The translations under genes were made by a program, and so were the position numbers. From the IMG/VR virus record IMGVR_UViG_3300044616_000326, positions 1 to 52,270 of that record: 52,270 nucleotides of DNA. The stretch is one strand, 5' to 3'. Shown one piece after another: positions 12,583 to 38,570 of this stretch (positions within the stretch are counted from its first letter, which is position 1; every line of letters starts with the position of its first letter). The notes beneath the pieces were generated by a model that worked only from the letters and a program-made list of their open reading frames with translations, searched no databases and was not told the DNA's origin. Source of the stretch: a virus. Lineage: Duplodnaviria > Caudoviricetes.

Positions 12583-15408
12583 ATGGCAACTTACCTACAG
12601 GGTGTCACGGATTATATACCACAGTTTCAGCCTTTTCAGCCTGACTTAAACTTCTATGGTAATATAATGCAAACAAAGCAAAGCCAGTATGACTCAAACT
12701 GGAAAGCTTTAAATGACATGTATGGAAAATATTATTATGCTGATTTAACTCGGGATAGTAATATTAAAAATAGAGACCAGTATATTAAAAATGCTGAATT
12801 CAATCTGCAAAGAGTATCACAGTTAGATTTATCTCTTGAACAAAATGCAAACCAAGCACTTCAAGTGTTTAAGCCATTTTATGAGGATAAGAATCTTATT
12901 AAAGATATGGTTTGGACTAAGAACTATAACTCTGAAATGAGTAGAGCAGAAGCTCTCAGAGGTTCTTCTGATCCTGAAAGAAATAAACAATACTGGGGTA
13001 CTGGTGTAGCAGCAATGCAATTTTTAAAAGAAGAATTTAAAACTGCATCTGATGAAAAAGCATCAACATTTAACAATGTTGCATATACTCCTTTTGTTGA
13101 TGTAGATGCTAAGGCAATGGATATTGCTAAAGACTTTGGAGATATTGAATCTGTAAACTTTAGTAAAGACGGTAGATGGATAATTAAATCTAAAAATGGT
13201 CAACAACTTGAGGAACCGTTGACTAAATTATTTGAATCAAGACTAGGTAATGATCCTGCTGTACAAGATATGTACAAGACACAAGCCTATGTTGATAGAA
13301 AATCATTTGCTAAAAATAATGCTGCACAGTTCAATGGAGATGAGAATGCAGCTGAAATGAAATATTTGGAGAATCAATTCAATGTTCTTAAGGTTCAAAA
13401 CAACCTAAGATATATGCAACTCCAAGAAACTAACAAAACTTATGACAATAGGATTGCAGACCTTCAAAAGCAAGTAGACAATGGAACTGCTGGTCCTGAT
13501 GTAAAAATGCAGTTAGAAGCCCTTAAAATGAATAAGGGTATTAATGATCAAGTTCTTGAAAGAGCTAAGAAAGAAAATGATTTACTTAACGGAGGTCAGG
13601 TTAATAATGCTGCAGGTAGTAATGGTTTTAAAAATCCATACGGTGATATTGAATCATTAAGATTTAAAGTAGATAGTGGTGTAGCATCTTCATTAATGCA
13701 GAAAGCATTAGGTGAAGCCGCTCATACCTTAGCTTATAGAAACTCTAAAGTAGATCTTGATGCTAACATTTACAAAGTAAATGAAGAGAAGTTCCAACAG
13801 AATGCGGCACTTACTAAAATGCGTATTCAAGGAGCTAAAGAAGTTGCAATGCTCAAAGAAAACCTAAGAGCTAAAACTGAAGCTGACAAAGCAAGAGTTG
13901 CTGCTGGTACTCACTATTATGATGAGAATAATCAAGCTACTCCTTATGAAGATCAAAAGAACTTCTTTGTAATTAAAAATGCTAAAGGTTCTGCAACAGA
14001 CAAACAGAATGCAATCGGTCTTAGCCGTGATATGGTTAAGATGAAAACTACTGATGCTGCAATGCCTTGGGCTAAGAATACTGTAAGTACTTTGTTTGAA
14101 TTATATAATAATGGTAAAATCTCAAAACAGAAGTTAAATGAGATCTTACATTATGATAAAAATCCAAACATCAGTCTTACTGAATTTAATAAAAAACTTC
14201 AAGCTAATCCTGTTGCATTCTTAACTAGAGAAGTTGGAACAAAAGATCTTGAGAATATTAAAGATAGATATGACAACTGGATTAGATCAAATTCACAATT
14301 AACAGAACTTAAAGGTGAAAGAGCTAAAAAAATTGTTGCATCTAATGTTGAGTTCCAGGATTATATCAACTATGTAAAAGAAGATAAAGCTTGGAGAACT
14401 GAATCTAGTAGAGCTGTTGAAAGACAGTTAATGAGAGGTGGTTATGGAGATGCAGCTTTTCTTTATGATGAGTCTGGTACATTAAGATCTGAAAAAGAAT
14501 TTAAAACTGCAGTATATAGAAAAACTGGTAGAAGTGCAAATGTTGATTATAAAGAAATGTTAACTGCTGCGGATGAAGCTTGGAGATCAGAAAAAGTTGT
14601 AAGAAAACCTGTTGTTGGTTTATCAGAGTTCTATACTAAAGGGACTGGTGTTTTTTCTGAAGGGGCTACTGCTCTTCAAATTAACCCAAGAAGTTCATAT
14701 GGTAGAAAATATTACGGTGAAGTTTATAATGACCTAAGAAACTTAGACTTTGGTGATACTACTAAAGTAAGATCATCTTTTCAAGGATATTCTAAAACAA
14801 ATTGGGATCAAGCAGGTGGTGCAAAGAATGCTAAAGTAGCTGCATTATTATCTCAATTGCAAGCAGACATGAGTTCTCCTAAATCAAAAGTAGGAACATT
14901 TACCTTAGGTGTTGCTCCTGTTGCTACAGGTAGTACTAGAAGAGCTGCTGTAATTATTAAACCAACTAATGAGTGGTTAAAACAATATGTTTCTACTAAT
15001 AAAGAACAGAATAATAATCTACTTACACAAGCTGAAGCACAGGCAATCTTAAAGAATGGTATTAACATTATGACAGATTCTAAGTCTATGAATAATAGTA
15101 TGTATAAAGCATCATTCAAAGATCCGCTTTCAGCTTATGTAGATTCAAAAGGAAAGTATTCTTATTCTGATCCATTAGATGGAAGGTTTAAAATTAATAT
15201 CAGTAAGAATGAATTTGGTACCGGAGATTATACAGTAGTTACAGAATATCCTTTATGGAATCCTGAGACAGGAAAATATGAAATAGCCAGAATGACAGAG
15301 AACCAAACTTCATTTGGAAACAATCTTACTTCACATAGAAATGAGATGGCATTTAATTATTTTGATTTAATTAAACAAACCAACCAATATTACTATAATG
15401 GCCAGTGA
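12583..15408 (+). CDS. Virion/ejection protein, hypothetical
   Basis: 941-aa helical ORF directly upstream of the giant genes. Overlaps the next gene by 11 nt. Confidence 0.55.
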   Translation: MATYLQGVTDYIPQFQPFQPDLNFYGNIMQTKQSQYDSNWKALNDMYGKYYYADLTRDSNIKNRDQYIKNAEFNLQRVSQLDLSLEQNANQALQVFKPFYEDKNLIKDMVWTKNYNSEMSRAEALRGSSDPERNKQYWGTGVAAMQFLKEEFKTASDEKASTFNNVAYTPFVDVDAKAMDIAKDFGDIESVNFSKDGRWIIKSKNGQQLEEPLTKLFESRLGNDPAVQDMYKTQAYVDRKSFAKNNAAQFNGDENAAEMKYLENQFNVLKVQNNLRYMQLQETNKTYDNRIADLQKQVDNGTAGPDVKMQLEALKMNKGINDQVLERAKKENDLLNGGQVNNAAGSNGFKNPYGDIESLRFKVDSGVASSLMQKALGEAAHTLAYRNSKVDLDANIYKVNEEKFQQNAALTKMRIQGAKEVAMLKENLRAKTEADKARVAAGTHYYDENNQATPYEDQKNFFVIKNAKGSATDKQNAIGLSRDMVKMKTTDAAMPWAKNTVSTLFELYNNGKISKQKLNEILHYDKNPNISLTEFNKKLQANPVAFLTREVGTKDLENIKDRYDNWIRSNSQLTELKGERAKKIVASNVEFQDYINYVKEDKAWRTESSRAVERQLMRGGYGDAAFLYDESGTLRSEKEFKTAVYRKTGRSANVDYKEMLTAADEAWRSEKVVRKPVVGLSEFYTKGTGVFSEGATALQINPRSSYGRKYYGEVYNDLRNLDFGDTTKVRSSFQGYSKTNWDQAGGAKNAKVAALLSQLQADMSSPKSKVGTFTLGVAPVATGSTRRAAVIIKPTNEWLKQYVSTNKEQNNNLLTQAEAQAILKNGINIMTDSKSMNNSMYKASFKDPLSAYVDSKGKYSYSDPLDGRFKINISKNEFGTGDYTVVTEYPLWNPETGKYEIARMTENQTSFGNNLTSHRNEMAFNYFDLIKQTNQYYYNGQ

Positions 15409-18400
15409 AAATAATACTGATAACTTCAGTGCATTAGATTCTTTGGGACCACAGTTTGGTGGAATCAACAGACCTAATTTAGATATTCAAAGTTATAAGC
15501 CTTTTGAAGGGGATAGAATATCTATGCCTGAAATTAACTTTCCTACACCGGCAGCATATAATTCTCCTATACCTTCATTTGATTCTATTGATAGACCAAA
15601 TCTTAGTATACAAAAGAATATAGTTGGTAGACCTCCTGGTCCAACAGGCCCAAGAAAAACTCCAAGATTTGAAGATATAAAGAGTAGTCTATATGACTAT
15701 GGTAAATCAATCTCTCAAGCTAACCAAGATCAGAATCAGTATGCTAAGATGTATTCTTACAATGCTGGGTCTGGTGGTAATTCTTTTTATAAAAGATATG
15801 CCGCATATGGTCAGACTAAGTTTGATGAGATTGGCTTCTCTCCATTAAGAGACAATGAAGCTGTCTTTAATGAAAGAACTACTGGATGGAATGACTTTAC
15901 TAGAATGATGCAACACTCATTCTTTCCATTAGCATGGCAAGGTTTTAAGTCTGCACCTAAGAGTCTTTTCAAAATGTTACAAGGTGACTTTAGTGGTGAC
16001 ACTGAAGATGCTAGAATATATGAAGAAGCTGCTGCTATAGGCCAATCTACTAAAGGTGGTGTTGCAGGTTTTATGAATAATACCATGATGAACTTTGGCT
16101 ATACAGCTGGTATCATGATGGAAGCTGTGGCAGAATTTGCTGCAGAAGCTGTAATTACTGGTGCTACTGGTGGTGCAGGTGGTGGAGTTCTTGCTGCAAG
16201 ATTAGGTGCAAACTTACAAAGAATTGGAAAAGGTCTTCCTAAGTTTACAATGCTTGATAAAGGTGGTGATATGTTCCGCAATAGTTTACAAGCATTAGGT
16301 AATTCACAAGCTGCAAGAAACTTTTACAAAGCGGCCAACAGTAAAGTTGGTCAGTTCTTTAACCCACTTACAAATACATTTGAAGCTGTAGGTGATGTAT
16401 ATAAGATTGGTAAGTTTGATAACCTATCAGGTCTTGCTGCATTATCAAAAACAGCAGGGGGATTCTATAGAGATGTGAGAGGTATTAACCTTGCTTTAGC
16501 TGAAGCTAGACTTGAGGGAGGTATGGTACAAAACTCTGTGTACGATAGTCTATATGATAAGTACTATGAGAAAAATGGTAAAGCTCCATCTAATGAAATC
16601 CAAAAAGCATTTGAGCAACAAGCCAAAGCTGCATCTGCAGAAACAATTGCTTGGAACTCTGCGCTAATATATGGAAGTAATAAAATTACTTTTCCTAATA
16701 TTATGAAAGGTAGTGCATCTAAATTTTTAAAGGGTGCTACTGATGATATTGTCAATTTTAAAAATGCCGGCAAAGTAGTTTTTCAAAGAGCTAAAGATGC
16801 TGCTGGTAAATTATCAAAAGGAGAATTTAAATATATTGACGGTAGTTTTAAAAGTTACCTGGAAGGTGTCAAAGGTTTAGGATTTAAAGGAGCTACTAAA
16901 GATTTAGCTGTAAGAGCTGCTAAAGGATCAGTAGGTTATTTTAAATCTAATATAACAGAAGGTATTCAAGAAAACTTACAAGAAACTATTGCAGGAGCAA
17001 TGGAAGGATACTATACAGATGCATTTAATAATCCAGCTGTAAGATCTTATCTATATGCTCAGGGTAGTACTACTAATGCAATGAGAGACAAGTATTCTTA
17101 CTTTGCAGAAAAGTGGGCTGAAGAAAATCCATTTACAGAAAAAGGTTTTGAAACATTTTCATCTGGATTTGTAATGGGTATGTTTGCTGGACCGCTTAAT
17201 AAAAGTATTGAATGGATCAGCTTAGGTTATAATAAAATCTTTGACTCAGCAGAATTTGAAGATTATAAAAATAAAAGAGCTAACTATGGTAAACAAGTAG
17301 CTGCACAATTAAATGCTTTATACTCTGACCCTAAACAATTCTTTGACTCAAAGATATTTAATTATGCTACTCAAAATAAGATAGCTGATATTAGAAACTC
17401 TGGTAATAGAAAAGAAACTCTTGACTCTGAAGATCATGCATTAGTAAGTGCAGTAACGTCTGCATTGCAAACAAACAGTATTGAATACTTTAAAGAGAAT
17501 ATTTCTGCAGTTAAAGAAATGACTCCAGAAGAAGTTGAAGTTGAATTTGGTTTAGAAAAAGGTAAAGGTGTAGAATATCAACAAAGAGTTGATGAGATAC
17601 TTTCTAGAGTAGATAAAATATCTGAAAGGTATGATCAAATGGAATCTAGATATCCAAATCCTGTGGATTTAAGTGGATATGAAAAAGGTTCTGATGCATA
17701 TAAGAAAGCTGCAATATTTTCATCTGCATGGGATGTAGCAAAAGCAAATGCTATATTCATGAATGAAAGTTATGATAATGCACGTAAAAGAATGGATAGT
17801 ATTGAAAAGACTATCAGAAGCCAGAAGCCTTTATCTAAGATGACTGATTCTGAAGTTCAAGTTCTATTCAATCCATCTAAACTTAAGAATGAAGCTGAAC
17901 TTTTACAAAGTGAATTAGATGCTCAAAAAGATAGTCTTACACCAGATGAGATATCTAAAAGACAAAGAAAAATTGAAGCTGTCAAAGGTCTCAATAAAGC
18001 ATATGAGTATTACTTTAAATACAATGTATTAGATAAAGAAGCTCAGATTGAAAAGATGCGCAGTGCAGGTCTATTTGAAAATCAAGTAGATGATGAGGGC
18101 AATCCAATTGATCCAGCTGAACTTGAAGCAGAAGCAAGACAAGAACTTGATAGACAACTGAGAGTTAAATCTAAATCTGAAGAAAACACAACTAGAGCAG
18201 AAGCTGATCTTGAAGTAGCTTACAAAGAGTATTTAAGATCTATTGCTGGTCTTAATGACGAAGATTATTTTGATAGCAAAGCAGAAGAAGCATTTGAACT
18301 TCTAATGGATAACTATAGACTAGGAAGAGAAGCAAGTACTTTATCTTCTTATGTAAATATGCTTCATAATCCAAAAAGTTTTACAGAACATGTGGAGAGA

Positions 18401-21400
18401 AACTACACATGGATGCAAAGACTTTATGATAATAGAAAAGAATACTATGAAGGATTAGTAAATCAAGAGATTACAAATCTTGAACTAAATACTTTACTAA
18501 ATAAACTAGCTGACAAAAATGTATTTATCAGTGCAGATGATGCATATGAATTTCAAAGAAATAATAAACTTCCAAATGAATTCTTTGATGCAACTAGAAA
18601 AGCAGTAATTAAAGAAGGTCATCCAGATTATGATGAGTATGTAGAGTTATTTGAAAGAGCTCTTAGACTCAAAATGATGGACCGTACTAGTTATGCTAAG
18701 ACATTAGATCAGATGCTTAATGCTGAGTTAGCTAATCTTGATGTTGAATTGCAAAGAGAGATTAATGCATTGCCAAAAACTGAAAGAGTTACAAAGAAAG
18801 GTAAACTTCAATTAAAGAATAACCTGGCTACTCTAGAAGAACTATCTGAGCAACTTGCTGATGGTGATTACATTGATGCTAAACTTGTACAGGGTAAAGA
18901 TGTATCTGAAATTACTATCTATAAAGACGGTAATGTACTTAAACTTGGAGATAAAAATGGTGAGGAAATTACTATAGATGAATTTGATGGAGGTTTTACT
19001 TCTGGAGATATTTATAGAGTAGAGCTTAAAGCCGATCCAGTTGAAGTTAGAAAATTAGAAAACCAATATTCAGAAAGAAAGCAAGATGTAATTAGACTCA
19101 ATATTCAGAAACTTGAGGATGATGTACAAATTCAACAAGCTGATTATGTACAGTTTACAGTTAATAGCTCATGGGAATCCATGGATGCTGAACTACAACA
19201 AAGATTAAATAATGCATTTAATGACTATATTGAAACAGATGAGAAACTTATTGATGAAGTTTCTGAGATGGAAGAGATAGAGATATTAAATATGTTGGAT
19301 GAGTTTATAAAGGATAACCCAACTGCTGCAAAGATTATTGAAGATTACAATAAAGAAAAACTTGATGAAGCTACACAAAAAGCAATTGAAGCTAATGATG
19401 CTCCTGAAGTAACATTTGAAGGAGAAGTCTATGATCTTTCTGCAATGGATATTTCTGAAATTAAAGCTTTGGTTAAAAAATTAGAAAGTCAATATAATAG
19501 ATTAAATAAAAAACCTGACTCTGAAAAAACAAATGAAGAGAAGGAAGCTGCATTAATGGCTAAGTTTGATCTTGATCTTGTAAATAGATATCTTATTAAA
19601 GCAGAAAATGCTGAAGCATTATCTAAGGAAGACACTTCTTCAGAGGAAACTCCGGAGGAAGAACCTAAAGAAGCAGAACCTGCCAAGAATGTGAATGATA
19701 TCAATAGAGATATTAAAAAGAAAAGAGAACAAGCTAAGAAAGCACTTGCTAAAAGAGTTGCTTTATTAGAGCAAAAGAGAAATAAACTAGCTACTGATGC
19801 TGCTAACATTAAGGATACTCTTAAACATTTGCAAGAGTTACTTGATACTAGTTTAGAGCTTACTGGTGTACAATTAGAAACTGCAATGGCTGATGCAAAT
19901 CAGATTAGTGAAATGATCAAAGCTATTGTAGACTTTAAGTATAAAAATAGACCTAAGACTAAAATTAGAAAAAGAGATATTAAAGCTCAAGTAGAAAGAG
20001 AATTTGAATTTGCAAAAGCTACATTAGCAAGAATTGCTGAACTTAAGGCAGATTTAAAAACTGTAGAAGCAAATAAAAAAGATATTACTAATCAGATCAA
20101 CTATTATAAAAATATGATAGCTGATCCTAATCTTAGTATTTTATCAAGAGCTGATATCCGTGAAAAGATTACTAAGCTTGAAAAGAAACTTACTACAGTA
20201 GAAAAATTAATTTCTATTCTTAAAAATGCAATTGCTAAATCTGTTGCTTATTTGAAAGAGTATCTAAATGTTTGGAACTCAAGATATAAGACAATGACAG
20301 ATTTCCAAAAGAAGACTGGCTTTAAAGTTTTATCTAAAGACGAACTTGGTAAATTAATTAAGTCTACTAATGCAGCTTCTATAGCAAAAGCTGAAGGATA
20401 TGCTGAATTAAAGAATCAGTTTGATCAACTTGAGAAATTAGTACTTGATACTATAGATGACGTAGAATTCCTAGAACAAGTACAAGATGAGGAACGTACT
20501 AGATTAAGCCAGCTTGAAGCTGCTGCTGATAGATACTATGATCAAATTAGATATCTATATGATCTATTAGATGATGTAGCTGAAGATATCACAGTAAAGA
20601 ATAAACTTGAGGGTGCTACACCGGCTTCTCCTAAAGCAGAGGCTACAGCTGAAACTGCGGAAGAGTTTGCTGATATAACTAATGAAACAGACAAGACTCC
20701 TCCAGTAGCTACATATAGTTTTGTAGATGCCGAAGTTGCAGACTTAGATGATATTGTAGGTCCTCCAGTAACTGAAGATATAGAAGCTAAGAAAGCTGAT
20801 ATAGAAAGAAGAAGACAAGAAGAGTTAGATGAATATGCTAATGATATTGTAGAAAGAGTTGAAGATTATGAAGTAATTGATGATAATGGAGATACTTTAT
20901 TTGTTCAAGTAAGATATAAAAAGGATGGCAGTAAAGAAGTATTGACAGGTGTAGAAAAAAATGAATATGGTAATGTAGCTAAAGGCGGTGCTATTATTAG
21001 TGATACTTTTTATGAAGATATATATCAAAAAGTAACTAAAACAGGAGAGAGAACTGCGGAAGAAGCAAACCTTAACGGTAGAACCAATAAAATCAATGCT
21101 AAATATGATGCAGAACTAGCTGCTTTAGAACAACCTACTCAAGAGGGTATCCAAGTGGTAACAGAAATTAATCCTGAGTTAAGACAAATGCTTAACCAAA
21201 TGGGTTATAAGAATAAGACTATTGATGCTCTTCCTAAGTCAATTCTTGAACGCATTGTTAAAGAAGGAATTCCATCTGAAGAATATGGTTCAAGAGTTAT
21301 AACTAAGTCTCTTGCAGCTGAGTCTGCATGGGCAACTGAAGGTACTCCAGTTACAGTAAAATCAATTGAAAAAGATGGAGTTACGCTACAAAAAGTTAAT

Positions 21401-30600: not shown

Positions 30601-33600
30601 ATCTTATATGAAAGTATTACAAGTTCATTAGGAGATAAAAAACTTATAGTTGATGTTGTTTCACAGATGCTTCCACTTAGAAATGGTGAACCAACAGATG
30701 AGTTTATAAAAACGGCTTTATCAGATGAACAGTATAAAACTGCTATCATAAATAAATTTGGTGCTAGTAATGACGGATTAGTAAACTTTGTTAGTTCATT
30801 TAAGAATGACATCAGTAACTTTATCTTACAAAACTACTTGTCTAACTTTATAGATGCTAATGGTAGTATTGTAAAAATACCTACTGAGTTTAAGGAGATG
30901 CCTGTTAAGCTATCTAATAATCTTTTAACTGATGTTGAGATTAAAGATGGTGTAGTATATGTGAACTCCCAAAACTTAAGAGAAGACTTCGCAAATAAAT
31001 CTTATTTAGATACAGCAGAAGGCCCAAGAAGCTATGCTCAAAGACCTGGATTTGAACCATTTAAAACAGAACAAGATCCATTTGCATCTGAAGAGGCATA
31101 TATCAAGTATGCTATATTCAGAAGTTACATGCAAACTAAAGGGTATACAGGACTTGAATTAAATAAGATTGCATTGTTAAACTCATTTAACTACAATGCT
31201 CTTATGAGAAATAATGATTACTCCTATACCAATGAGGTAATGGATGTAATCCAGAAGTATCCTAATCTTGCAATTGATTATCCTATCTTAGAGCAAATCA
31301 GTATTCACTCTACTTCTAAGTCTACAGAGTTTAATGTACTTACTCTTACTGACAGAGATGTAATTGATGCAGCTACTAAAGATACTTATGCTAGAAACAT
31401 TAGAGCTCTAGGCAATGAAAGTGTACAAAAAGTTGAAGACACTAAAGAAAACTTAAGAATCAGTAGATTATTCCACATGCTTCCATTGGTAGCAATTTAT
31501 CAACATGGTGTAGGTTCTACTCTATATGGATTTGATCAAGTACTTCCACAGGATATGGTGCAGTCTGCAATGCAAAACGCATCTAACTTATTTAAGTTAA
31601 ACTATTGGAATACTAAAGGATTAGCACATGTATTTAAGACAACAGTAAATACTGAGGAAAGACAGTTTAAAAACTTTGTAGTAACAGAAGCTGAGTTTAA
31701 TCAAATGCCTGAGCTTCGTGCAGTAGCAGCTGAAGAAGATCCATTTGAGGCTATTGAGAATGCACCAACTATTACTCAACCTACTACTAAACCTACTGAA
31801 GTTAAAAGTGGTGTACAAGAAATATTTGAATCTAATCCTGAATTATCAAATATAGGATCTCAAGAACAATATTCTCAATATTTAAATAGTATATTTCCTA
31901 ATAGCCAGATAAAAGACATACTTTATCATGGTACTTCAGCTTATAAGCTCGGAGATGTTATACCTGATTTTCAAAATCGTGCATTATATTTAGCTAATAA
32001 AAAAATGGCTCAAAGTTATGCTGGAAAAACTGGTGTAGTATTACCTGTAATAATAAATTCTCAAGTTCTAATAAACTCTCCAGAACTTATTGGAGAATTA
32101 CCAGAAACTCTTGCTGTAAGAAAAGAACAGTTAAAAAATGCAAAACTTGCAGAACAAAATAAAGGATTCTTTGCTGTTAATAGAGGTATATTCAGTGTAG
32201 ATGATATTATTCTTGGAGAACAAGATATTGAATATTATTTAACTGAAGATGCCTATTCTAATAGAAGGAATCAAAGATTTGAAGCACTTACTGGAGAAGA
32301 CTTAACTAAATTTATAAAATTTTTAGAAAATAGAATTACTGAGATAGAAGCTGGAAGACCTATTGATTCTTTTATAACTAGAGCAGATGGTGATCCAGAA
32401 GATTTCTATGGTGTTTTTAATCCTAAAAATGTTTTATTTCTAGGTTCTACACAAGATATAGAAGGGTTTAGAAACTTTGTAAAGAATACTCCTGTAGTTA
32501 ATCAATCACCACAAGCTAAAACAACAGATGATTATAGATACTTTGGTAGTATGTATACCATTAAGTTACAGGATGGTGTTGGTGTAGATGTTGAAGGTTA
32601 CAAAGGTAAAGCTGCAGCTAAACAAAAGCTTCTTGATGCTTACAATACTGATCCAAATGTGGACCCTCAGAATGGTAGACCATTTAGAGAAACTCCTACT
32701 CAGTTAGAAGTACAAGCTCAAAATTCAGGAAATACATTTGTATTTGCAAATGGTATAGCAATTGATGTTCCATTTACACTTAATGCAGAACAACAAGCTG
32801 CATTGTACAAACTGGAAGATTTCTATAACAACCCTGCTAAGTATAAAAATGAGATTACATTATCAGGTTATGCGGGTACAGGTAAGACTACAATCTTAGG
32901 AATATTTGACAAGTATTTAAATAAAAAAAGTTATGTAAAACCTATTTATACTTCACCTACTCACCGTGCAAATGCAGTGACTCAGATGAAGAATCCAAAA
33001 GCTAAGGTAGTTACATTACACTCCTTGTTTGGTCTTAACCCGATGCTTAATCTTGAAAGTGACCAGTTAGATATTAGGGATGTTAAAACAGAATCTGTTA
33101 GAAAACCAAATATTAAAAGAGGAGATACTATCATTGTAGATGAATCTTCTATGGTAACTAATGAGCTCTATGATTTAATTCAAGAGTTTAAAGATGACAT
33201 GAATCTTAAAATTATTTTTGCAGGAGACAGAGGTCAACTTGGTCCAGTTCAAAATGATACAAAACTACAATCTAAAGTATTTGATAATTCACAGAATCAA
33301 ATACAACTTACTAAAGTTGAAAGAACAGGAGATAATCCAATCTTATTAAACTCTACAAGAGCAAGAGAAGGACAAGACTTTACTTATATAACTGATGAGA
33401 TAGATGGCAATGGTGTAGAGTTCTTTGATACTCCTGATAGATTGAACCAGATTATGGGTCAAAATCTAAAAGAAATGAAAGAGTCTGATAACCCACTTTA
33501 TTTCAGAATTCTTTCCTCTCTAAACAAAGATGTAGCTAGAATCAATATACAAGCTAGAGAAATCATGTTTGGTGCGGAAGCCAAAAAATCTCCATACATT

Positions 33601-35157
33601 GAAGGAGAAATCTTAATGGGCTATGATAACATTGGAGAAGATGAGTTAATTAATTCAGGTGACTATGTTGTAAAAAGTGTATCAGAAGTAAAAGATATTG
33701 AAGTATCAATTACACAAGGTAACTTAACCTCATATGGTATTGAATTTTCATCAGGTAAAAAAGTAAAAGTTAAAGGTTATACAATAACTATTCAAGATGC
33801 CCTTAACTCAAATAAAGATCCTTTTCAAATTAATGTTCCAACTGAAGGAAATGATGAGGCACTTGCCGAAATTGCTAAAGGTATATTAGATCTTAAAGCT
33901 CTATTCTCTAAACTACAAGGTAAAGCTAGAGGATTACTATTTGGTGAAATTAGTCTTTTAACTCAAAAGATAGTATTCAATAAAGACATTATTGAAAATG
34001 GTAGATTCCTTGCTAAAAAAGGAATAGACTACGGCTATGCTCATACCATTCACAAATCTCAAGGAGGAACATACAACAAAGTACTCATCTTTGACGATAG
34101 CATCTCAAGCCTTGCAGCTAATCTAGCTGACAAAAGAAAGCTTGGAATGGACGGTCAAAAAGCAATCAAAGATCAATTGAAATATGTCGCAATCTCTAGA
34201 GCTAGTGAGTATGCATATGTGTACAATCCAAAAGACACTGCGGTAGGGGGATATGATTTCAGAGGTGAAACACCACAACCTATTACTGAAGAAGACTATG
34301 ACACAGCAGCTGTGGCAACATTTTCATTTGCTACGGTAGAAGAGAAACCTACTCCTGCAGTACCAACTAAGGGAGAGATTGAATTAAGATCTGATAATGT
34401 AGATAAAGTATTTAGTGGTAATAAAACTATTACAAACAGAACTAGCTTGATTAATGATGGTAAATATTCTATTAAAGGTTCTACTGATGTTGTAGAAATT
34501 AAATATATAGGTAAATCAACAATCAACGGTAATCAAGTTACGATCACTAATGAAAAAACTGGTAAGGTATCTACAAGAACTCTAGATCAATTAGCAAAAG
34601 CTGAAGGCTTCAAAGATGCTGCAGATTTTAAAGCTAACAATAAGTTTAGCACTAATTATCTTAACGGTACTCAGAGTAGATATCTTTATCAAATAACTCC
34701 AGTATTTGCGGTATCTGCAGATGCTGAGGCTGCAATGGGTAGAATTAATCCTGAGACAAGTACAGACCTACAAGACTTCAGAGATGCTGTTGCACAAAAC
34801 AATAACATCTTCCCAGCTAAATTTACTTCAGCTGCAGGTAGAGTTTATGTCCTTAACTCAGATGGATTATATAACTTAGTAGACCCATTAAGTGGTACTA
34901 CATTAATGAAGAACATTGATTTGACTACAGGTGAGATGGGTGTTCCAAGTAATGTAAATGTTCCAGCAACTAATGCTTACAAAAATGAGTTACTAAAACA
35001 GATTCAAACCTACATAAAAGATTTTAACTTAGAAGAGATATTAGGCCAATATGGTTATGATGTCAAAGACTTGATTGAGAAAGTACAAAATGCTGAGACC
35101 CAAGATCAAGTAGATGAAGTTGCTGCATTAATAAATGAAAAGATTTGTAAATCATGA
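21652..35157 (+). CDS. Giant virion RNA polymerase (two-barrel, crAss-like) fused to zincin, ART-like, SF1B helicase and ASCH-like domains
   Basis: Catalytic GGDFDVDKL (DxDxD at 29110-24), upstream RIP motif and EGDGQGY (~27835). HEAWH..EEILAEDF (24364-24504). YHGT ART-like region (~31800-32480). GYAGTGKT / IVDESSM / GDRGQL / HKSQG / YVAISRA helicase motifs (~32770-34230). GNKTITNR..AKAEGF ASCH-like region (~34375-34700). Confidence 0.85.
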   Translation: MAITCALGTKHIEALAKVIYKKMSTLPQGEVFDINGYMDYLYTKLAEKQGVDSALQYMQQFPYLANIIAAKLIDVVDIDPSVNLAAMAKAFRNPDTGWQEVNARFNRELTPEVLDAVSDYEANTPTQQDYEDEVPTPIAKVSDDRLKATTALSGTLEQFITMNPNDKFEGVVESTDPNKTYIRLALAKIKNLARNLDINATINYQGKFLRLKVVNLKDFPRDERTQQTDDLIGKMIGIGEEESIKNDVTPISQLFALMLTDENGNTIYFNQQGDVTTKEKGGKPVYQMMRDVRLQNGKYTVRDIYNKEDQIMTPTDLAYEMLRFMGYGSVSSYEKNENASFADLVKDLGKQQQEEFKKLYDLKQQALKGKAPLLFVTGASTGILNDVIKQDVKLSDLEGLAPNTIDTFLVLNKDEYGFRSGASIITVDDQSFQVDRIDIPKDISKQIAQALQSKTLKTKEKVAFYNQFFNDKIVNLQSKINNQDFSFVTDTRRHKLIQKNNKLYFVYADYTAAELKANPSLVNTLRYVPLDGSKQSTDKIQEVLNGGKASVKEGKVTKYGAKMNYMNGILNSDFFTYDETNDKLVKSGTYKEFIVGLNPKILLSKSQGLPLYNSYLKFAIPDAYSNKAAKAQQKATQDTRSAVRKFKDDMVEVIKNAPAQSIKITVQNVREVTRNNQPPVYNYDAVIEGQPGVHKFYGAKNKVNQSDEFYLEVTDVTDNGFLFKDVVKALSDTEFGRMDMGSLGDRDFNTETSRGIPIETITAAETEVAEALDELKPEPNTVPDEDIEGDQKELLNPDNTIQPSDSTPISRRLKRDYGKFKLDRGANLSNDVTQEQIDAATTWWNNSPLSKFISLEQVANIVNSNVYARFIAAGSSLLAEQNLDGKLGKILINQATKGSMVDTYHEAWHVFSQLFLTREEKLKLYNEVRNSDPKFKNLSAFAIEEILAEDFRTYALSPKTKKGAPVRNTLFRRILNFLKKLFSRKQSLADQIQPEEISTYGVAGELFNKLFFASNKPELLNDYVPLIENVQFDMLNRGIRQQRAYREDALNERDSLDLVNAMDSMISEEIDNAYAYQKESNGVTANKSGTVNIILKKENEAQLYEFLKENLEDRVAEIKNRLTVAPVKPFNDINTLVDLSTNAIAVIKNSKGDNEYFFLRDQIEDFDNLTLDNKEGERIKGELYKGTIDVIGDFYTHNKIKGTDKTPANIVIVNSLEEAKAQFEAYVKAKETDYTDIVENPNASATQAVLDFDQKLDLERLRIFQTALKNWNKTIKFHKEHSDFNIINKKVRLQESDPALDPEEATNDIEDAAGGEKLKDSVGDVTLQQLADNEVIYMLKSLFALDKDGNHQYDRLGFKKRASFKKVWNALVRSTGSTKDPQEIYNKIVAASAIYPELKQLVEYKLPNPSVEDPINGTSFSITTSFWNAFSLPRIKYIQLLVVPEKDGTTTEVVGTSMDIGSTKRKFTSQFRAQKPNKFISKDKFNNNILNLNAIVKEFIGDDGQLKTGDDAEYRFLKAIGFNYDDLGKIKQTLSDKIIRKDYALGYIFTVFKELRDAQSSGNVTEEGWEIINRFKSNPIDALSKGFGKGIIGAPNSSIYLEGPKLSTAVNKLIELQNKYGATSSNFSVLNAAKKRVNEHTKDNTLTVIADALNSATEKTELFRKGSITSYLDPKRNPWTNNLQTFNSLFDASNKKRAGRSIAIEMASGTQILNKDGSTTTDLDPRSKFIQEFHTMLKAGMQEVLRPGSKSSSFAWRIDGGIEFPGIGSKKDKHLYIDFDTFLSMNNELDAIEKIILPYVSSETARINIFKTNPEAKNYIGYNKPGKDGKPSGEQFNYFDGVLSKETKQEILSKVNTTEVTLLNYLSSDPKLKETIIKEIQSYFEKKSNKLYDYLNEAKYIDPKLLNKYNIPGFTGSQKERLLTKTYMYNSWIHNLETSVIFYGDIAQYDHTKQGFHKRTSGLISNGRRFRTDVSAIRYINEQFNLGKTYASTLAPKYNNFIYDGSLNTAIIEEIKRDSVYIPDIRDGLTKFYTENTKMSADEIKKTVDREIKKYTKEEIKEGDGQGYITFDAYRTLKKLQNKWSDKQEDLFQKIIKGEPIEGPLDEFFPVYKLQNFGYLEDTVLPVTAFHKFALFPLIPSVIKEGSDFDKLHKKMLEQNIQYVTFESGSKVGAITSNGKPDKAFTEDGRFNDSVVFTKNTFNAGFLKEVTNVPNKYKGNVVFPTQLRKLILDGLYEEGALTLPKYSGLVKAYEESVKFNTELLKEELKQEIGYDETKGITNPEKFLKVIKDNLRRKDYPEHLLRALKTNSDGSLKYDLSYFLDAQAIEDTIMSIVEKKFVRQKVKGEALVQVASSFTNNMWTAPTDADIKKHMGSNTLPFYHPGKDGKTNAMKVAISLQGDFYHLLKLKHLDGEAIGTIQRLNQMIKDDKWLDTDNNRKSITMTAVRIPVQGLNSMEFMEVYEFLDPSAGSIIIVPTELVAKSGGDFDVDKLTTFMPNINSETGEVITSNLSREEFFAAYNKATDAEKKEMLKQQKKAVENSFIENIRSILEIPENYATLVKPNDTALLQGLSEELEDKVSDFDKYEKVNGEEVNISGKGTKMISPTTVLEPRYNVAKHGHNIVGKAVLGIAASENAMNPIFNQAGVILPKKYKASEFSKSLSKYVEFGEPIYDMRLFLPHNKTKSGNISLSKIYDETGIDRIADVVSQGMNGWVDVEANEWIFYIQGNYELAPTMLYLIRSGVPREYAVKFVSSPLIREFAEELRKISGPFAGAMGIAAKEKAFERYEATKRVIDRHMREYYNASTSVLQPNDDVTVYYKTFVPNQGWIDIPTKMKYSELRNNINGLIYDLNNVSSVTIDFDGKEREVYVKPSVDNKLFYNSSSKANERYETSGYSLELMDNLIDSYAKTGTVDQNQIIPAMGMLLHFSEIQKQIQGIGRMKRRSKPDTTLFRNIQEIALRDLDIDSLDTLSKVDKASKDRILYESITSSLGDKKLIVDVVSQMLPLRNGEPTDEFIKTALSDEQYKTAIINKFGASNDGLVNFVSSFKNDISNFILQNYLSNFIDANGSIVKIPTEFKEMPVKLSNNLLTDVEIKDGVVYVNSQNLREDFANKSYLDTAEGPRSYAQRPGFEPFKTEQDPFASEEAYIKYAIFRSYMQTKGYTGLELNKIALLNSFNYNALMRNNDYSYTNEVMDVIQKYPNLAIDYPILEQISIHSTSKSTEFNVLTLTDRDVIDAATKDTYARNIRALGNESVQKVEDTKENLRISRLFHMLPLVAIYQHGVGSTLYGFDQVLPQDMVQSAMQNASNLFKLNYWNTKGLAHVFKTTVNTEERQFKNFVVTEAEFNQMPELRAVAAEEDPFEAIENAPTITQPTTKPTEVKSGVQEIFESNPELSNIGSQEQYSQYLNSIFPNSQIKDILYHGTSAYKLGDVIPDFQNRALYLANKKMAQSYAGKTGVVLPVIINSQVLINSPELIGELPETLAVRKEQLKNAKLAEQNKGFFAVNRGIFSVDDIILGEQDIEYYLTEDAYSNRRNQRFEALTGEDLTKFIKFLENRITEIEAGRPIDSFITRADGDPEDFYGVFNPKNVLFLGSTQDIEGFRNFVKNTPVVNQSPQAKTTDDYRYFGSMYTIKLQDGVGVDVEGYKGKAAAKQKLLDAYNTDPNVDPQNGRPFRETPTQLEVQAQNSGNTFVFANGIAIDVPFTLNAEQQAALYKLEDFYNNPAKYKNEITLSGYAGTGKTTILGIFDKYLNKKSYVKPIYTSPTHRANAVTQMKNPKAKVVTLHSLFGLNPMLNLESDQLDIRDVKTESVRKPNIKRGDTIIVDESSMVTNELYDLIQEFKDDMNLKIIFAGDRGQLGPVQNDTKLQSKVFDNSQNQIQLTKVERTGDNPILLNSTRAREGQDFTYITDEIDGNGVEFFDTPDRLNQIMGQNLKEMKESDNPLYFRILSSLNKDVARINIQAREIMFGAEAKKSPYIEGEILMGYDNIGEDELINSGDYVVKSVSEVKDIEVSITQGNLTSYGIEFSSGKKVKVKGYTITIQDALNSNKDPFQINVPTEGNDEALAEIAKGILDLKALFSKLQGKARGLLFGEISLLTQKIVFNKDIIENGRFLAKKGIDYGYAHTIHKSQGGTYNKVLIFDDSISSLAANLADKRKLGMDGQKAIKDQLKYVAISRASEYAYVYNPKDTAVGGYDFRGETPQPITEEDYDTAAVATFSFATVEEKPTPAVPTKGEIELRSDNVDKVFSGNKTITNRTSLINDGKYSIKGSTDVVEIKYIGKSTINGNQVTITNEKTGKVSTRTLDQLAKAEGFKDAADFKANNKFSTNYLNGTQSRYLYQITPVFAVSADAEAAMGRINPETSTDLQDFRDAVAQNNNIFPAKFTSAAGRVYVLNSDGLYNLVDPLSGTTLMKNIDLTTGEMGVPSNVNVPATNAYKNELLKQIQTYIKDFNLEEILGQYGYDVKDLIEKVQNAETQDQVDEVAALINEKICKS

Positions 35158-38100
35158 GAATAGATAGATGTCCTATAGAAACAGATTCAGAATGGCAAAG
35201 AATTCTCTCTGAAACCGGTGGTGACAGAGTAGAAGCCCGCAAAAGATGGGAGGCTGAAGAATTTGATAAAGATGACAAGAGAAATGAGTATAAAGAAATT
35301 GAGGAGTCTGGTGCTGCGGTAACTAAAGCTGAGCCTACCAGAGCTGAAATGGAAGATGACAAAGTCACAAGACTTGTTGAAAATATACGCATCTATCTAG
35401 AAAAGAAAATTAAAGTTCTTGAGAGAAGTAAAGTTTTTAAACAGAAAGAGAAAATCAAAGAGACTAAAGATTTGATTAATATCTTAGAGAACCTGGATGG
35501 TATTAACAGCATTAATGAGTTTGTCAAAGATGCATTTAATAAATCCAAGCAAGCTCATAAGCACTTTAATTTTGTGATTAACAAAATCCAGAATGATGAG
35601 TTAACTAGAAAAGAAGCTATCCAAGAACTTATAGCTATGCAAGATTTTGCAAATAGATATAGTATCATTGATGAGATTCAAAAGTCTGATGTACTTAAGT
35701 TCTTTTCTACTCCTGTTAATGTTGATCAAATGATTAACCAAGATGAAAATGAACTTACTCCACAAGAGATGTTATCATTTACTAAGACAGTAAGAGATAA
35801 TATTAAGACTAAGTTTGTTGCTGAAGGTATCCCATTAATGGCAGATTTCTTATTGGATTATAAACCAATGGGTGTTGATGAGAAAATTAAAAAGGAAGTT
35901 TATCAGCTCCAACAAAAAATTGAAACAATTAAAAATAATCCAAAAAATTCTCAAGAGTTTATTGAAAAGAAAACTAATGAACTTCAAGAAAGAATTGATA
36001 CTATTCTAAACTTTACCCTGGACAAAAAGTCCATGATTGAAGTTCTTGAAAAAGCCAATAAAGATACTGGAGTATTTGATTACTTAACAGCTCCATTAAT
36101 TAGTTCTCCTGATAGTGCTCTAGGCTTATTTGCACGTGCTGTAAAGACAGAAATGGAAACGGCAAGGTTAGAAGATATTGACTTCAGAAAACGTGCTGCA
36201 AAAGCCTTTAATGAATATAAAGCAAGTGTTGGGTCTATGCTTAGAGATAACCCTGCTAAATTTAATGAAGGTTTGTATGAAGAGATTAGTGTTCCAAGAA
36301 CAGATCCCGAGACCGGAGAATATATTAGAACTAAAGACGGTAGAATTATCTTAGATAAGAGAATGGCTTTTGTACAAAAGTATGACCAGTCTTTATTCCA
36401 TAAAGAGAAAGCAAGATTCTTTGAATCTATTGGTAAAAGACCAACCAATCCTACTGATGCACGTGAGTGGTATACAAAAATTAATCAGTGGTTTGATGCT
36501 AATACAGTAGCAAAACCTCAGGAACAGATTGATGAAGTACTTAAGCAAAAAGAACTTGAGAGAAACAGAGGTCTTTTAACTGAAGATGAGTATCAACAGT
36601 GGAGAAAAGAAAATCTAAAACTTGATGAGTCAGATAGAATTATAGGTTATAGATATGGTAAATCTGGTGAACTTGTACAACCATCTGAAAAATATATCAA
36701 TACTAAATGGTCTGCTCTCTATGATAAGAATGGTAAACCACTTAATCCTAAAGGTAAGTATCATGAGTTTCTTGTAACTGAATATTTAAAGTCCCAAGAA
36801 AATTTACCTGATATTCAAAAATTAGGATACATTCTTCCATCTATTGAAAAGACAAATGGAGAACGTTTGTTTGCTAAAGGTATTGTTGATCTTACTAAGA
36901 ATACATTAAGTGAAACATTTAATGTTAAAGCATATGATATTGAATATGGTGTTGACTTAGGACTTGGAGAAGAAGGTAATAAATTCTTACCAGTATATTT
37001 TGTGCAACCAATGAATCCGGATGATGTAAGTCTTAACTTAATGCGCTCTGTATTAATGTTTGGGTCTATGTCAAATAACTATAATGCTCTTAATAATATT
37101 TACTCTGAGATAAGTTTATTTAAAGAGATTATTGGTGAAAGAGAAATTGCTGAAACTAATGCTAAAGGTATTCCAATCATAGACTCTATTGCTAATAGAC
37201 TAGGTTATGATAGATACTTAAAAACTCATGGTACCAACTATTCTGCAAAAAGAGTTAATGACTTTATAGACATGGTAGTCTTTGGAGAATCAAAAGCAAG
37301 ATGGGAAATTGCCGGCATTGCAATTGATAAAGTAATAGATAAGATGATGAACTTCTCATCTATATCTACACTTTCTTTAGACTTACTGAAAGGTATGAAT
37401 AACAACCTACAGGGTAACATTCAATTATTAATTGAAGCTGCCTCAGGTGAATTCTTTGATATAAAAGATTGGGGAAGAGGAAAGAAAGATTACTGGGCAA
37501 ATATTCCAGGTATGCTTGCTGACTTTGGTAAGTTTACTCCAGAAAGTTTATTTGGTCAACTTGTAGAACAATATGACCCTATGCAGGGAGAATACAAAGA
37601 CCAATTTGGTAAAGTAGTTACAGCAAGTGTTGCTAATAAATTATTCTCAACAGATACTATATTCTTTAACCTTCACTTTGGTGAACATGAGATTCAAGTA
37701 TCTACTTTGTTTGCTATGCTTAACAGTAGAATGGTAACTGATAATGAATCAGGTGAAGAGATTTCTTTAATGGATGCCTATAAAAAATATGGCGTTGATC
37801 AGATAAAAAGCAAGACCAGTTTTACTGAAGAGATGAGATTGGATGTGCAGAATAAAATTCATGCACTAAATAAAAGACTCCATGGTATCTACAATAACTT
37901 TGATAAGTCTGTGGCGCAAAAGTATACTCTTGGTAGATTGGGCTTTATGTATAGAAAATTCTTAATCCCTTCTTACACTAGAAGATTTAAGAAGTTAGGT
38001 ATGGACCAAGAACTTGGTTCAATGACTGAAGGATTCTATAGAACATTCTGGAATGCATTTGCTAAAGATATCCTTACATTTAAATCAGGTATGATGTCTC

Positions 38101-38570
38101 AATGGAGTACTCTTTCAGATTTTGAAAAAGCACAAGTAAGAAGAACATTAACTGAGTTAGGATTTATTTTAGCTTTGTCAGCATTAATTTGGGGATTACT
38201 TCTCATGGTTGATGAAGATGATGAAGAGGAAATGAAAAAAAGTTATGCATATAACTTTATGTTCTATCAGGCTATCAGGTTACGAAGTGAAACACAACAG
38301 TACTTACCTGGTTTTGGTTTTAAAGATGCCTACAGGATTGTAAAATCCCCTACAGCAATGACTAATACAGTTGACCACTTTATTAAGTTTATTGATCAGT
38401 TTTTATTTACATGGGATGAAGAGAAATTATCTTATCAAAGAAGAGCTGGTGTATGGGAAAAAGGAGATAATAAATCTTGGGCTTATTTCTTAAAACTAAT
38501 TGGATACACTGGAAATAATATTACTCCTGAACAGGCAGTTAAGAATTTCCAAATGGTACTGAATAAATAA
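35154..38570 (+). CDS. Giant ejection/cargo protein 3 with a C-terminal transmembrane-like helix
   Basis: 1138 aa, with LGFILALSALIWGLLLMV followed by an acidic run. ATGA overlap with the vRNAP stop. Last plus-strand gene. Confidence 0.65.
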   Translation: MRIDRCPIETDSEWQRILSETGGDRVEARKRWEAEEFDKDDKRNEYKEIEESGAAVTKAEPTRAEMEDDKVTRLVENIRIYLEKKIKVLERSKVFKQKEKIKETKDLINILENLDGINSINEFVKDAFNKSKQAHKHFNFVINKIQNDELTRKEAIQELIAMQDFANRYSIIDEIQKSDVLKFFSTPVNVDQMINQDENELTPQEMLSFTKTVRDNIKTKFVAEGIPLMADFLLDYKPMGVDEKIKKEVYQLQQKIETIKNNPKNSQEFIEKKTNELQERIDTILNFTLDKKSMIEVLEKANKDTGVFDYLTAPLISSPDSALGLFARAVKTEMETARLEDIDFRKRAAKAFNEYKASVGSMLRDNPAKFNEGLYEEISVPRTDPETGEYIRTKDGRIILDKRMAFVQKYDQSLFHKEKARFFESIGKRPTNPTDAREWYTKINQWFDANTVAKPQEQIDEVLKQKELERNRGLLTEDEYQQWRKENLKLDESDRIIGYRYGKSGELVQPSEKYINTKWSALYDKNGKPLNPKGKYHEFLVTEYLKSQENLPDIQKLGYILPSIEKTNGERLFAKGIVDLTKNTLSETFNVKAYDIEYGVDLGLGEEGNKFLPVYFVQPMNPDDVSLNLMRSVLMFGSMSNNYNALNNIYSEISLFKEIIGEREIAETNAKGIPIIDSIANRLGYDRYLKTHGTNYSAKRVNDFIDMVVFGESKARWEIAGIAIDKVIDKMMNFSSISTLSLDLLKGMNNNLQGNIQLLIEAASGEFFDIKDWGRGKKDYWANIPGMLADFGKFTPESLFGQLVEQYDPMQGEYKDQFGKVVTASVANKLFSTDTIFFNLHFGEHEIQVSTLFAMLNSRMVTDNESGEEISLMDAYKKYGVDQIKSKTSFTEEMRLDVQNKIHALNKRLHGIYNNFDKSVAQKYTLGRLGFMYRKFLIPSYTRRFKKLGMDQELGSMTEGFYRTFWNAFAKDILTFKSGMMSQWSTLSDFEKAQVRRTLTELGFILALSALIWGLLLMVDEDDEEEMKKSYAYNFMFYQAIRLRSETQQYLPGFGFKDAYRIVKSPTAMTNTVDHFIKFIDQFLFTWDEEKLSYQRRAGVWEKGDNKSWAYFLKLIGYTGNNITPEQAVKNFQMVLNK

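Follow-up and report, generated by a model that had tools for sequence, protein, structure and literature searches.

Paired terminal cysteines mark the chain breaks of the virion RNA polymerase module in crAss-like phages

Introduction

It is still an open question how podovirus-like phages pass hundreds of kilodaltons of protein through a narrow tail in advance of their DNA. In crassviruses, which dominate the phages of the human gut in abundance, the cargo module consists of gp67, gp66 and gp65 in phi14:2 and of gp47, gp50 and gp49 in crAss001. According to the main text of the crAss001 atlas (PMC10172136), the cargo proteins are housed in the capsid and have to unfold in part before they can pass the constrictions of the tail, the order of their ejection is probably set by packing and by mutual contacts, and inter-subunit disulfides are present in tail and portal-vertex proteins of the virion. 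A comparable set of ejection proteins is found in the Schitoviridae (gp50 to gp52 of N4, gp71 to gp73 of DEV), in which a giant packaged polymerase and its companions are nearly free of cysteine, a scarcity for which the part of PMC11445570 on N4-like ejected proteins gives transit of the periplasm as the reason. The polymerase folds of the two systems are unrelated, being two-barrel in crAss-like phages (phi14:2 preprint) and T7-like in the N4 type, as the relevant part of PMC13434306 describes. Here we analyze a module of the crassvirus kind that is present in the virus record IMGVR_UViG_3300044616_000326 (Duplodnaviria; Caudoviricetes), of which positions 1 to 52,270, a stretch of 52,270 nucleotides, were studied and are referred to as the window.

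Three adjacent genes of the window encode giant proteins, which we call A, B and C, and this block is, as judged from sequence homology, the virion RNA polymerase and cargo module of a crAss-like phage. The module resembles those of other Crassvirales in its DFDxD polymerase, in its gp65/gp49-type protein, in its place at the close of the late operon beside divergent replication genes and in the pattern of terminal cysteines that is the subject of this report. It differs from those of the model phages in its break points, the HExxH domain of crAss001 gp47 lying inside B, and in the size of B, which is about twice as long and bears a Dda-like helicase. The Schitoviridae differ in another respect: their ejection proteins have essentially no cysteine, the few that are seen being ascribed to annotation errors in the same part of PMC11445570, whereas in the module described here one cysteine is strictly kept at each inner terminus.

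Results

Proteins A (2084 residues, 234.6 kDa; positions 15398 to 21652), B (4501 residues, 507.4 kDa; 21652 to 35157) and C (1138 residues, 132.2 kDa; 35154 to 38570) are encoded on the + strand and together comprise 7723 residues and 874 kDa. A sequence-only reading of the window had claimed that the three proteins contain only four cysteines, all at termini that face one another, and an exact recount by script returned C2083 of A, C5 and C4499 of B, and C6 of C, with zero extra internal cysteines. At the first junction the penultimate residue of A, C2083 (codon TGT, + strand, 21644 to 21646), is followed by C5 of B (TGC, + strand, 21664 to 21666); at the second, C4499 of B (TGT, + strand, 35146 to 35148) is followed by C6 of C (TGT, + strand, 35169 to 35171). 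The N-terminus of A and the C-terminus of C, which would be the outer ends of a chain with A as its first, B as its middle and C as its last link, are without cysteine. The gene overlaps described in the same reading are also present, TAATG at 21650 to 21654 between A and B and ATGA at 35154 to 35157 between B and C. Upstream of A, a protein of 1195 residues (6789 to 10376) has no cysteine, and neither, as had been proposed, has the 941-residue protein encoded at 12583 to 15408 on the + strand, which overlaps A by 11 nucleotides (15398 to 15408). The latter belongs to the same late, cargo-like block as a context gene outside the cysteine-bearing chain, and of its homologues in the five complete genomes of relatives, four have no cysteine and one has 2.

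The scarcity and the placement of these residues were compared with a background of 317 distinct, mechanically called opposite-strand open reading frames (ORFs) of at least 200 residues from the window and 80 related loci. Their cysteine frequency is 0.995%, from which about 77 cysteines would be expected in 7723 residues; the content of A, B and C combined is 0.05%. Within the window itself, the eleven ORFs of the - strand range from 0.26 to 5.4% cysteine. The probability of four or fewer cysteines in 7723 residues is 6e-28, and the chance of four cysteines falling one in each of the inner six-residue end windows is 9e-12. Among the background ORFs, 43 of 317 have a cysteine in residues 2 to 11 and 3 of 317 have one in the last three residues, and none has both. 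In the relatives only one sense codon precedes each in-frame ATG, and the N-terminal cysteine therefore cannot stem from a reading frame that was called too long, although initiation further downstream is conceivable.

The terminal cysteines are conserved in homologues of each of the three proteins. Exactly one cysteine, located 0 to 3 residues from the C-terminal end, is present in 29 of 33 homologues of A, and none of these 29 has a cysteine near its N-terminus. Homologues of B carry a cysteine at both ends in 90 of 97 cases and lack internal cysteines in 93 of 97, with an overall content of 0.048%, and C5 forms an invariant column in alignments of B N-termini. Protein C is a homologue of phi14:2 gp65 and crAss001 gp49; a tblastn search with C found 82 phage records, including crAss001 gp49 (E 9e-42) and phi14:2 g065 (E 5e-19), and its homologues number 2754 cluster representatives at E <= 1e-3. 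Among the best 150 of these 2754, 123 are 1000 to 3899 residues in length, of which 116 have a cysteine at position 2 to 8, the sole cysteine of the protein in 91, and none has a cysteine in the last 10 residues.

We also took a census of junctions on fetched DNA, with no filter for cysteine, in related genomes. Cysteines are present on both sides of all 70 distinct junctions upstream of C (102 junctions in all, from 80 loci), and at the level of loci in 76 of the 76 that have an ORF upstream of C. At A/B junctions the pair is found in 36 of 37 distinct cases (60 loci), and the lone miss is locus L151, where the start call is odd. The whole block was read in five complete genomes, all of which conform; a search of these genomes with the C-terminus of A gave no match, and the regions were inspected directly.

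Sequence identity in the alignments of these termini is 14 to 40%, and the terminal cysteine is the only invariant column. The manner in which the alignments were assembled bears on this result. Alignment A1 comprises 59 of the 150 representatives, picked among those with an N-terminal cysteine, and the invariance of C6 in it is not evidence because the rows were selected for that residue. Rows were admitted to alignments A2 and A3 only if the C homologue had a cysteine within its first 11 residues, and only the invariance of the upstream C-terminal cysteine in A2 is free of selection. Alignment A4 was too divergent for the scan, and a smaller alignment was used. In the alignment of the upstream C-terminal domain (39 sequences), the terminal cysteine is again the only column without variation.

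All 16 annotated phage genomes examined follow the same rule, including phi14:2, crAss001 and p-crAssphage; they comprise six genomes of the Steigviridae type, five Suoliviridae, four Intestiviridae and one unclassified Leptolyngbya phage, Lbo-JY46. The only cysteine of phi14:2 gp67 (1797 residues) is its last residue, C1797; gp66 (2180 residues) has C3 and C2179; and gp65 (1421 residues) has only C3. Likewise, crAss001 gp47 (2341 residues) has only C2339, gp50 has C5, C1334 and C2404, and gp49 has only C5. At most three residues follow the C-terminal cysteine in 116 of 124 cases, and at most four precede the N-terminal cysteine in 197 of 208. Conservation in orthologues, which the sequence-only reading had proposed as a check, thus holds across Steigviridae, Suoliviridae, Intestiviridae, the cyanophage and many metagenomic lineages, and the pattern is a deep rule of crAss-like phages and no quirk of the window.

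Two groups of these genomes have features of their own. Lbo-JY46 (PP438436.1) is a cyanobacterial phage outside the Crassvirales classification, and it carries the same module and the same cysteine rule, which therefore extends beyond phages of Bacteroidota. In the Suoliviridae cr4_1, cr113_1 and cr114_1, the giant gene contains 38 to 73 in-frame stops under translation table 11. Stop-codon reassignment is known in some crAss-like phages, and the in-frame stops in the late genes of these three are consistent with it; their cysteine positions were determined with the stops treated as read through.

The core result of this study is that the cysteine pairs covary with the breaks between chains. 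Five Suoliviridae have A and B fused in one protein of 4272 to 4946 residues; these fusions have no N-terminal cysteine and keep the pair at the next junction, and the fusion of cr1_1 (4551 residues) has cysteine only at C4026 and C4548. Fusions of B and C occur in Intestiviridae and in Lbo-JY46, and here the pair at the first junction is kept and the C-terminus is without cysteine; in Lbo-JY46 a protein of 1552 residues with only C1552 is followed by one of 2748 residues with only C4. Furthermore, 14 giant fused representatives (3953 to 5388 residues) contain the HExxH, polymerase and C regions in order, and protein A matches one fully fused giant, P0080. None of the 14 has a terminal cysteine, 9 of the 14 have no cysteine at all, and together they contain 12 cysteines in 67,387 residues. 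Hidden Markov models of the C-terminal domain of B and of the N-terminal mini-domain of C found no match in 18 fused or long forms at E values up to 10.

Conversely, additional breaks are accompanied by additional cysteines. Many metagenomic lineages encode the C-terminal part of B separately, as a protein of 242 to 782 residues with exactly two cysteines, C3 and the last residue, and the giant ORF that precedes it ends in cysteine; the C-terminal domain of B (residues 4367 to 4499) is homologous to the C-terminal 130 or so residues of such small extra pieces. At one locus (L079) there are four consecutive pieces, with a cysteine at every inner end. The pair is not bound to a homologous position and moves with the break, since crAss001 gp47 ends, at C2339, where B of the window is continuous and cysteine-free (residues 903 to 1086). 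The proposal to examine natural fusions and fissions had come from the sequence-only reading, and its expectation was borne out: fusions lack, and fissions have, exactly the junction pair.

A different type of interruption served as a negative control. In bajarodcaudo virus 1 (14636 to 15529 of locus L011) and cr116_1 (14874 to 15713 of locus L114), the polymerase gene is split inside the DFDxD motif, between DFD and VD, by an endonuclease-type gene, and the downstream piece has no N-terminal cysteine. The insert is probably mobile-intron-like and removed at the RNA level; in both phages the annotated 5' polymerase ORF runs on into it. The cysteine rule thereby separates true protein breaks from intron-type interruptions.

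The covariation also bears on whether the terminal cysteines might have mutually unrelated roles, such as attachment to the virion, thiol modification or protection of new ends from proteases. A 674-residue protein of Lbo-JY46, in which a lone N-terminal cysteine has no visible partner, would be in keeping with such roles. They would, however, apply to outer ends as well, which lack cysteine, and they would not make both cysteines of a junction appear and vanish together, and we consider this explanation quite unlikely.

Signals in the DNA or for translation at junctions where genes overlap, or mistaken gene calls, could also be supposed to produce the pattern incidentally, and the two junctions of the window indeed share a similar DNA string around the codon of the C-terminal cysteine and the next start. 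This is contradicted by phages in which the genes are not linked. In five genomes of the Steigviridae type besides phi14:2 (crAss001, cr85_1, bajarodcaudo virus, DAC15 and cr116_1), the genes of the gp47 and gp50 types lie on opposite strands and are not adjacent, and the gp47-type protein keeps its lone C-terminal cysteine all the same; as the first gene of crAss001 is unlinked, junction DNA cannot explain the pattern. Moreover, both cysteine codons are used, TGT in 61 and TGC in 9 of the upstream positions and TGT in 49 and TGC in 21 of the downstream ones, the spacing between genes varies from -20 to about +145 nucleotides, that is, from overlap to more than 100 nucleotides, and the cysteine is kept at protein identities of 14 to 30%. 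Selection accordingly acts at the level of the protein. A DNA-level similarity search with the two junctions found no match in the phage collection. A DNA-level origin of the junction motif was rejected on the grounds of unlinked genes, two codons and variable spacing, and we give this class of explanation almost no weight.

Two annotated giant genes seem to start too far upstream, that of cr110_1 (7665 to 7709 of locus L111) and that of bajarodcaudo virus 1 (18273 to 18329 of L011). The internal M-S-C of the former and M-A-K-S-C of the latter match the N-termini of the close relatives cr11_1 and crAss001, and the terminal-cysteine rule can therefore be used to correct start codons.

We next consider the sequences that surround the cysteines. 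The C-terminus of B consists of a conserved domain of about 130 residues (residues 4367 to 4499; + strand, 34750 to 35148) that ends in a helix-like L-x-K-[IL]-C, of which the last residue is the terminal cysteine. Residues 1 to 35 of C (35154 to 35260) form a conserved mini-domain, C-P-x-K-x-S-x-E-W ... A-N-G-N-E ... W, which C6 opens (C-P-x-x-x-S-x-E-W) and which is followed by an acidic low-complexity linker. The two elements look like matched docking elements. Co-folding of facing termini had been suggested earlier, and prediction with the last 141 residues of B and the first 50 of C gave a score of 0.44 (runs of 0.02, 0.46 and 0.44), above the best of three controls (0.02). The runs agree in at least 72% of contacts, with a predicted local distance difference test (pLDDT) value of at least 57 for the partner. 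The calibration set contained 80 solved complexes, of which 58 reached the 0.44 mark, and 110 mismatched pairs, of which 2 did; at scores up to 0.60 the mark was reached by only 7 of the 80 complexes together with both mismatches. The suggested test thus lends weak support to docking of the C-terminus of B with the N-terminus of C.

These features bear on the possibility that the facing cysteines share a metal ion, or merely aid non-covalent docking, with no disulfide being formed. Covariation with breaks suits any bridge between ends, a metal bridge could form in the reducing cytoplasm where packaging takes place, and the termini may dock, as the co-fold weakly supports. There is, however, only one cysteine per end, and no conserved histidine, aspartate or second cysteine is found nearby in 39 aligned C-terminal and 39 aligned N-terminal regions. 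Two thiolates alone make a poor metal site, and a labile bridge is unlikely to survive unfolding and threading. We regard a metal-mediated or purely non-covalent contact as unlikely.

Several further comparisons bear on the identity of the three proteins. In pairwise BLAST restricted to the three window proteins, residues 1927 to 2764 of B align with residues 863 to 1659 of phi14:2 gp66 (E 2e-24), and residues 1056 to 1533 of crAss001 gp50 align with residues 2049 to 2540 of B (E 4e-15). This part of B contains DFDVD (residues 2487 to 2491; + strand, 29110 to 29124), an instance of DFDxD, the catalytic motif of crAss-type virion RNA polymerases, and B thus appears to be such a polymerase fused to accessory domains. 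A T7-like single-subunit polymerase domain, as in N4 gp50, has no corresponding Pfam family in B at E values up to 10. B has a single HExxH motif (residues 905 to 909; + strand, 24364 to 24378), which lies in a domain (residues 903 to 1086) whose homologue in crAss001 is the C-terminal domain of gp47. Depending on the lineage, this zincin-like domain is found in different gene products, and in p-crAssphage it is annotated in gp45. Protein A has no BLAST match to gp67 or gp47, and the gp47 C-terminal domain aligns with residues 903 to 1086 of B instead.

Residues 3710 to 4190, approximately, of B (+ strand, 32779 to 34221) form an SF1B (Dda/PIF1-like) helicase domain, with matches to Pfam AAA_30 (2.4e-18) and UvrD_C_2 and to the Dda helicase 3upu in the PDB (E 1.9e-13). 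The sequence-only reading had described this domain as cysteine-free, which is so, B having cysteine only at positions 5 and 4499. It had also placed ART-like and ASCH-like domains in the giant proteins; these did not reappear, as Pfam at E values up to 10 shows only SF1B/Dda-like helicase families in B. No Pfam families were found for A or C, no Pfam or PHROG family for the 941-residue protein, and no PHROGs for five of six late proteins. A PDB sequence search gave no match for C and only helicases for B, and phmmer against the whole PDB did not list gp66. The precomputed Pfam families of B homologues (P0184 to P0280) vary by clade and include PF13604/PF05970 (helicase), PF18760, PF13532, PF08719, PF13671/PF06414, PF00075 and PF12694. 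It seems that the giant ejected protein carries swappable enzyme 'payload' domains, nearly all of them cysteine-free.

The + strand of the window is a run of large late genes. The block of A, B and C lies at the end of this late operon, beside divergent replication genes on the - strand from about 39 kb, which encode a family B DNA polymerase, endonuclease VII, a PD-(D/E)XK nuclease and a Toprim primase. The relatives of this phage are metagenomic genomes of 113 to 122 kb. A late protein of 709 residues (10386 to 12515) has six cysteines, all within residues 359 to 442 and including two C-x-C pairs, and its homologues in related genomes have 8 to 10, similarly clustered; surrounded by cysteine-free neighbours, this may be a structural protein with a metal site.

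Discussion

The observed cysteine pattern, its conservation and its covariation with chain breaks call for an explanation that links the ends of successive proteins. The head-to-tail chain proposed in the sequence-only reading agreed with each of the comparative tests that were applied. We consider it probable, at somewhat better than an even chance, that each break is bridged by a terminal disulfide, giving a single-file, N-to-C chain, of about 874 kDa in the window, for ejection. A, B and C are consecutive pieces of a chain that other crAss-like phages make as a single giant, cysteine-free, virion-packaged polyprotein, in which an HExxH domain and the virion RNA polymerase are combined with variable enzyme 'payload' domains and the gp49/gp65-like region. 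At each break the new C-terminus and the new N-terminus both bear one cysteine, and the two would form an inter-chain disulfide in the virion. Separately translated proteins would in this manner be re-joined as an unbranched thread of uniform polarity, A-S-S-B-S-S-C in the present case, which would pass single-file and partly unfolded through the portal, the tail and a channel in the envelope, each piece drawing in the next. Because the cysteines lie 0 to 3 residues from the C-terminal end and 2 to 5 from the N-terminal end, the joints would carry only tiny side stubs, so that single-file passage would be possible. Other cysteines are purged, which would keep the joints unambiguous and avoid oxidation during transit of the periplasm, as argued for N4-like phages. 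Upon arrival in the reducing cytoplasm the joints would open and the modules would be freed. We infer the disulfide chemistry, the pairing in chain order, the threading through the tail and the reductive release; a single-file thread is favoured over a mere stabilizing bond because the cysteines are at the extreme ends, the joints run from C-terminal to N-terminal end, and the outer ends are free.

The inter-subunit disulfides in tail and portal-vertex proteins of the crAss001 virion (PMC10172136) are a precedent for such bonds. The same logic as proposed here is found in two-chain translocated toxins, which have one inter-chain disulfide that is reduced in the cytosol of the target cell. In both cases a disulfide would hold chains together during membrane passage and the reducing cytosol would free the active part. 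The toxins differ in that they derive from a nicked single precursor whose chains lie side by side, whereas here separate proteins would be joined end to end, in series that reach at least four pieces, and no toxin is involved.

Disulfides might instead form in the capsid without an ordered chain, by random pairing, by links between copies of the same protein or by closure of middle pieces into rings. Since every fission contributes two thiols, the parity is the same whichever way they pair, and no structure indicates which ends meet. The ends created by a fission were, however, neighbours in the parent chain, and the fused forms need no cysteine, which argues that the pair replaces that one peptide bond. 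In addition, rings or head-to-head links would place two strands in the channel and would leave the extreme terminal position of the cysteines unexplained, and outer ends never have cysteine. Unordered pairing is, in our estimation, improbable.

A more remote variant of the linked chain is that the joints are turned into true peptide bonds, which we hold to be very unlikely. The cysteine pair would then drive re-ligation into one polypeptide without an intein, by thioester chemistry like that of native chemical ligation or by an unknown ligase. Such a process, to which we assign only a very small probability, would fit both the presence of a C-terminal and a near-N-terminal cysteine at each break and the fact that split and fused forms are equivalent. 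Native chemical ligation needs a free amino-terminal cysteine, and the N-terminal cysteine is never residue 1, being at position 2 to 8 and mostly at 3 to 5. Moreover, gp65, gp66 and gp67 of phi14:2 are annotated in the sequence record as separate virion proteins from proteomics by tandem mass spectrometry (MS/MS). Split inteins and protein trans-splicing are alike in restoring continuity to the product of a split gene, with a cysteine at the joint; they differ in that no intein domains flank the joints here and the cysteines are near the very ends, the N-terminal one not being residue 1. An intein was rejected as an explanation, no intein or Hint family having been found in the Pfam searches.

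Several observations weigh against the disulfide-linked chain. Because the junctions were counted in genomes that are related to one another, they do not represent independent events; the docking score of the termini of B and C is weak; and no published disulfide between these proteins was found in the papers covered. The reducing cytoplasm is where virions are assembled, and the lumen inhabited by gut crAss phages is anoxic, so that the oxidation step is an assumption. Cysteine parity cannot fix the pairing, and self-closure of the middle piece together with an A-to-C link, for example, fits as well. There are also exceptions: the rule fails for 4 of 33 A homologues, one end is without its cysteine in 7 of 97 B homologues, and 7 of the 123 C representatives have no N-terminal cysteine, six of these being entirely free of cysteine. 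Some of the exceptions are probably truncated gene calls; the loci of two cysteine-less ones, P0109 and P0124, were not found in the viral collection. Internal cysteines are tolerated in gut lineages, with 8 in p-crAssphage gp44 and 10 in the first polymerase ORF of cr116_1, and in two phages, crAss001 and bajarodcaudo virus, the polymerase carries its C-terminal cysteine at a distance of 8 residues from the end. The 674-residue protein of Lbo-JY46 (2674 to 4698 of locus L016) has a lone C5 with no evident partner, the preceding protein having no cysteine.

The sequence-only reading had held that internal cysteines are selected against to avoid mispairing, and internal cysteines are rare, as the survey of B homologues demonstrates. 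Avoidance of mispairing is nevertheless not the sole possible reason, because the scarcity in N4-like phages is explained by passage through the periplasm in the part of PMC11445570 concerned with it.

In the literature covered, which comprised main texts, with the phi14:2 paper as a preprint, there is no statement on terminal cysteines or disulfide links in these proteins. The terms cysteine, disulfide and Cys do not occur in the phi14:2 polymerase preprint. The word 'cysteine' is absent from the main text of the crAss001 atlas (PMC10172136), whose passages on disulfides concern other virion proteins, from the 2021 crAss genome survey and from the 2026 paper on N4 ejection. The terminal-cysteine rule and its covariation with fission and fusion therefore appear to be new, the scarcity of cysteine being already known from another phage family.

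A broader interpretation, which we offer tentatively and rate as possible but rather doubtful, is that the terminal disulfides are more than staples and act as redox-cleavable stand-ins for peptide bonds. The cargo would then behave as a near-megadalton 'protein train' assembled from cars that are translated separately, of which only a continuous thread could be spooled into the capsid and pulled in single file through the tail and the envelope, one car towing another. Its uncoupling on entry into the reducing cytoplasm would time the activation of the polymerase and of the payload enzymes. If this were true, gene fission and fusion would be nearly neutral, and many different break points would be expected as a consequence; the order of ejection could moreover be read from sequence alone. 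End-to-end joining of proteins by terminal disulfides would, if real, be a natural example that may interest protein engineers.

For the annotation of crAss-like genomes the cysteine rule is a tool in its own right, since it indicates where giant genes are likely to have their true start codons; in two public annotations the 5' end seems to extend too far. It also predicts a chain order for genes that are scattered in the genome, which in crAss001 would be gp47, then gp50, then gp49. As phi14:2 and crAss001 are both in culture, the chain hypothesis is testable. For the crassviruses, the rule offers a concrete proposal for how the order, polarity and coupling of ejected cargo proteins may be established.

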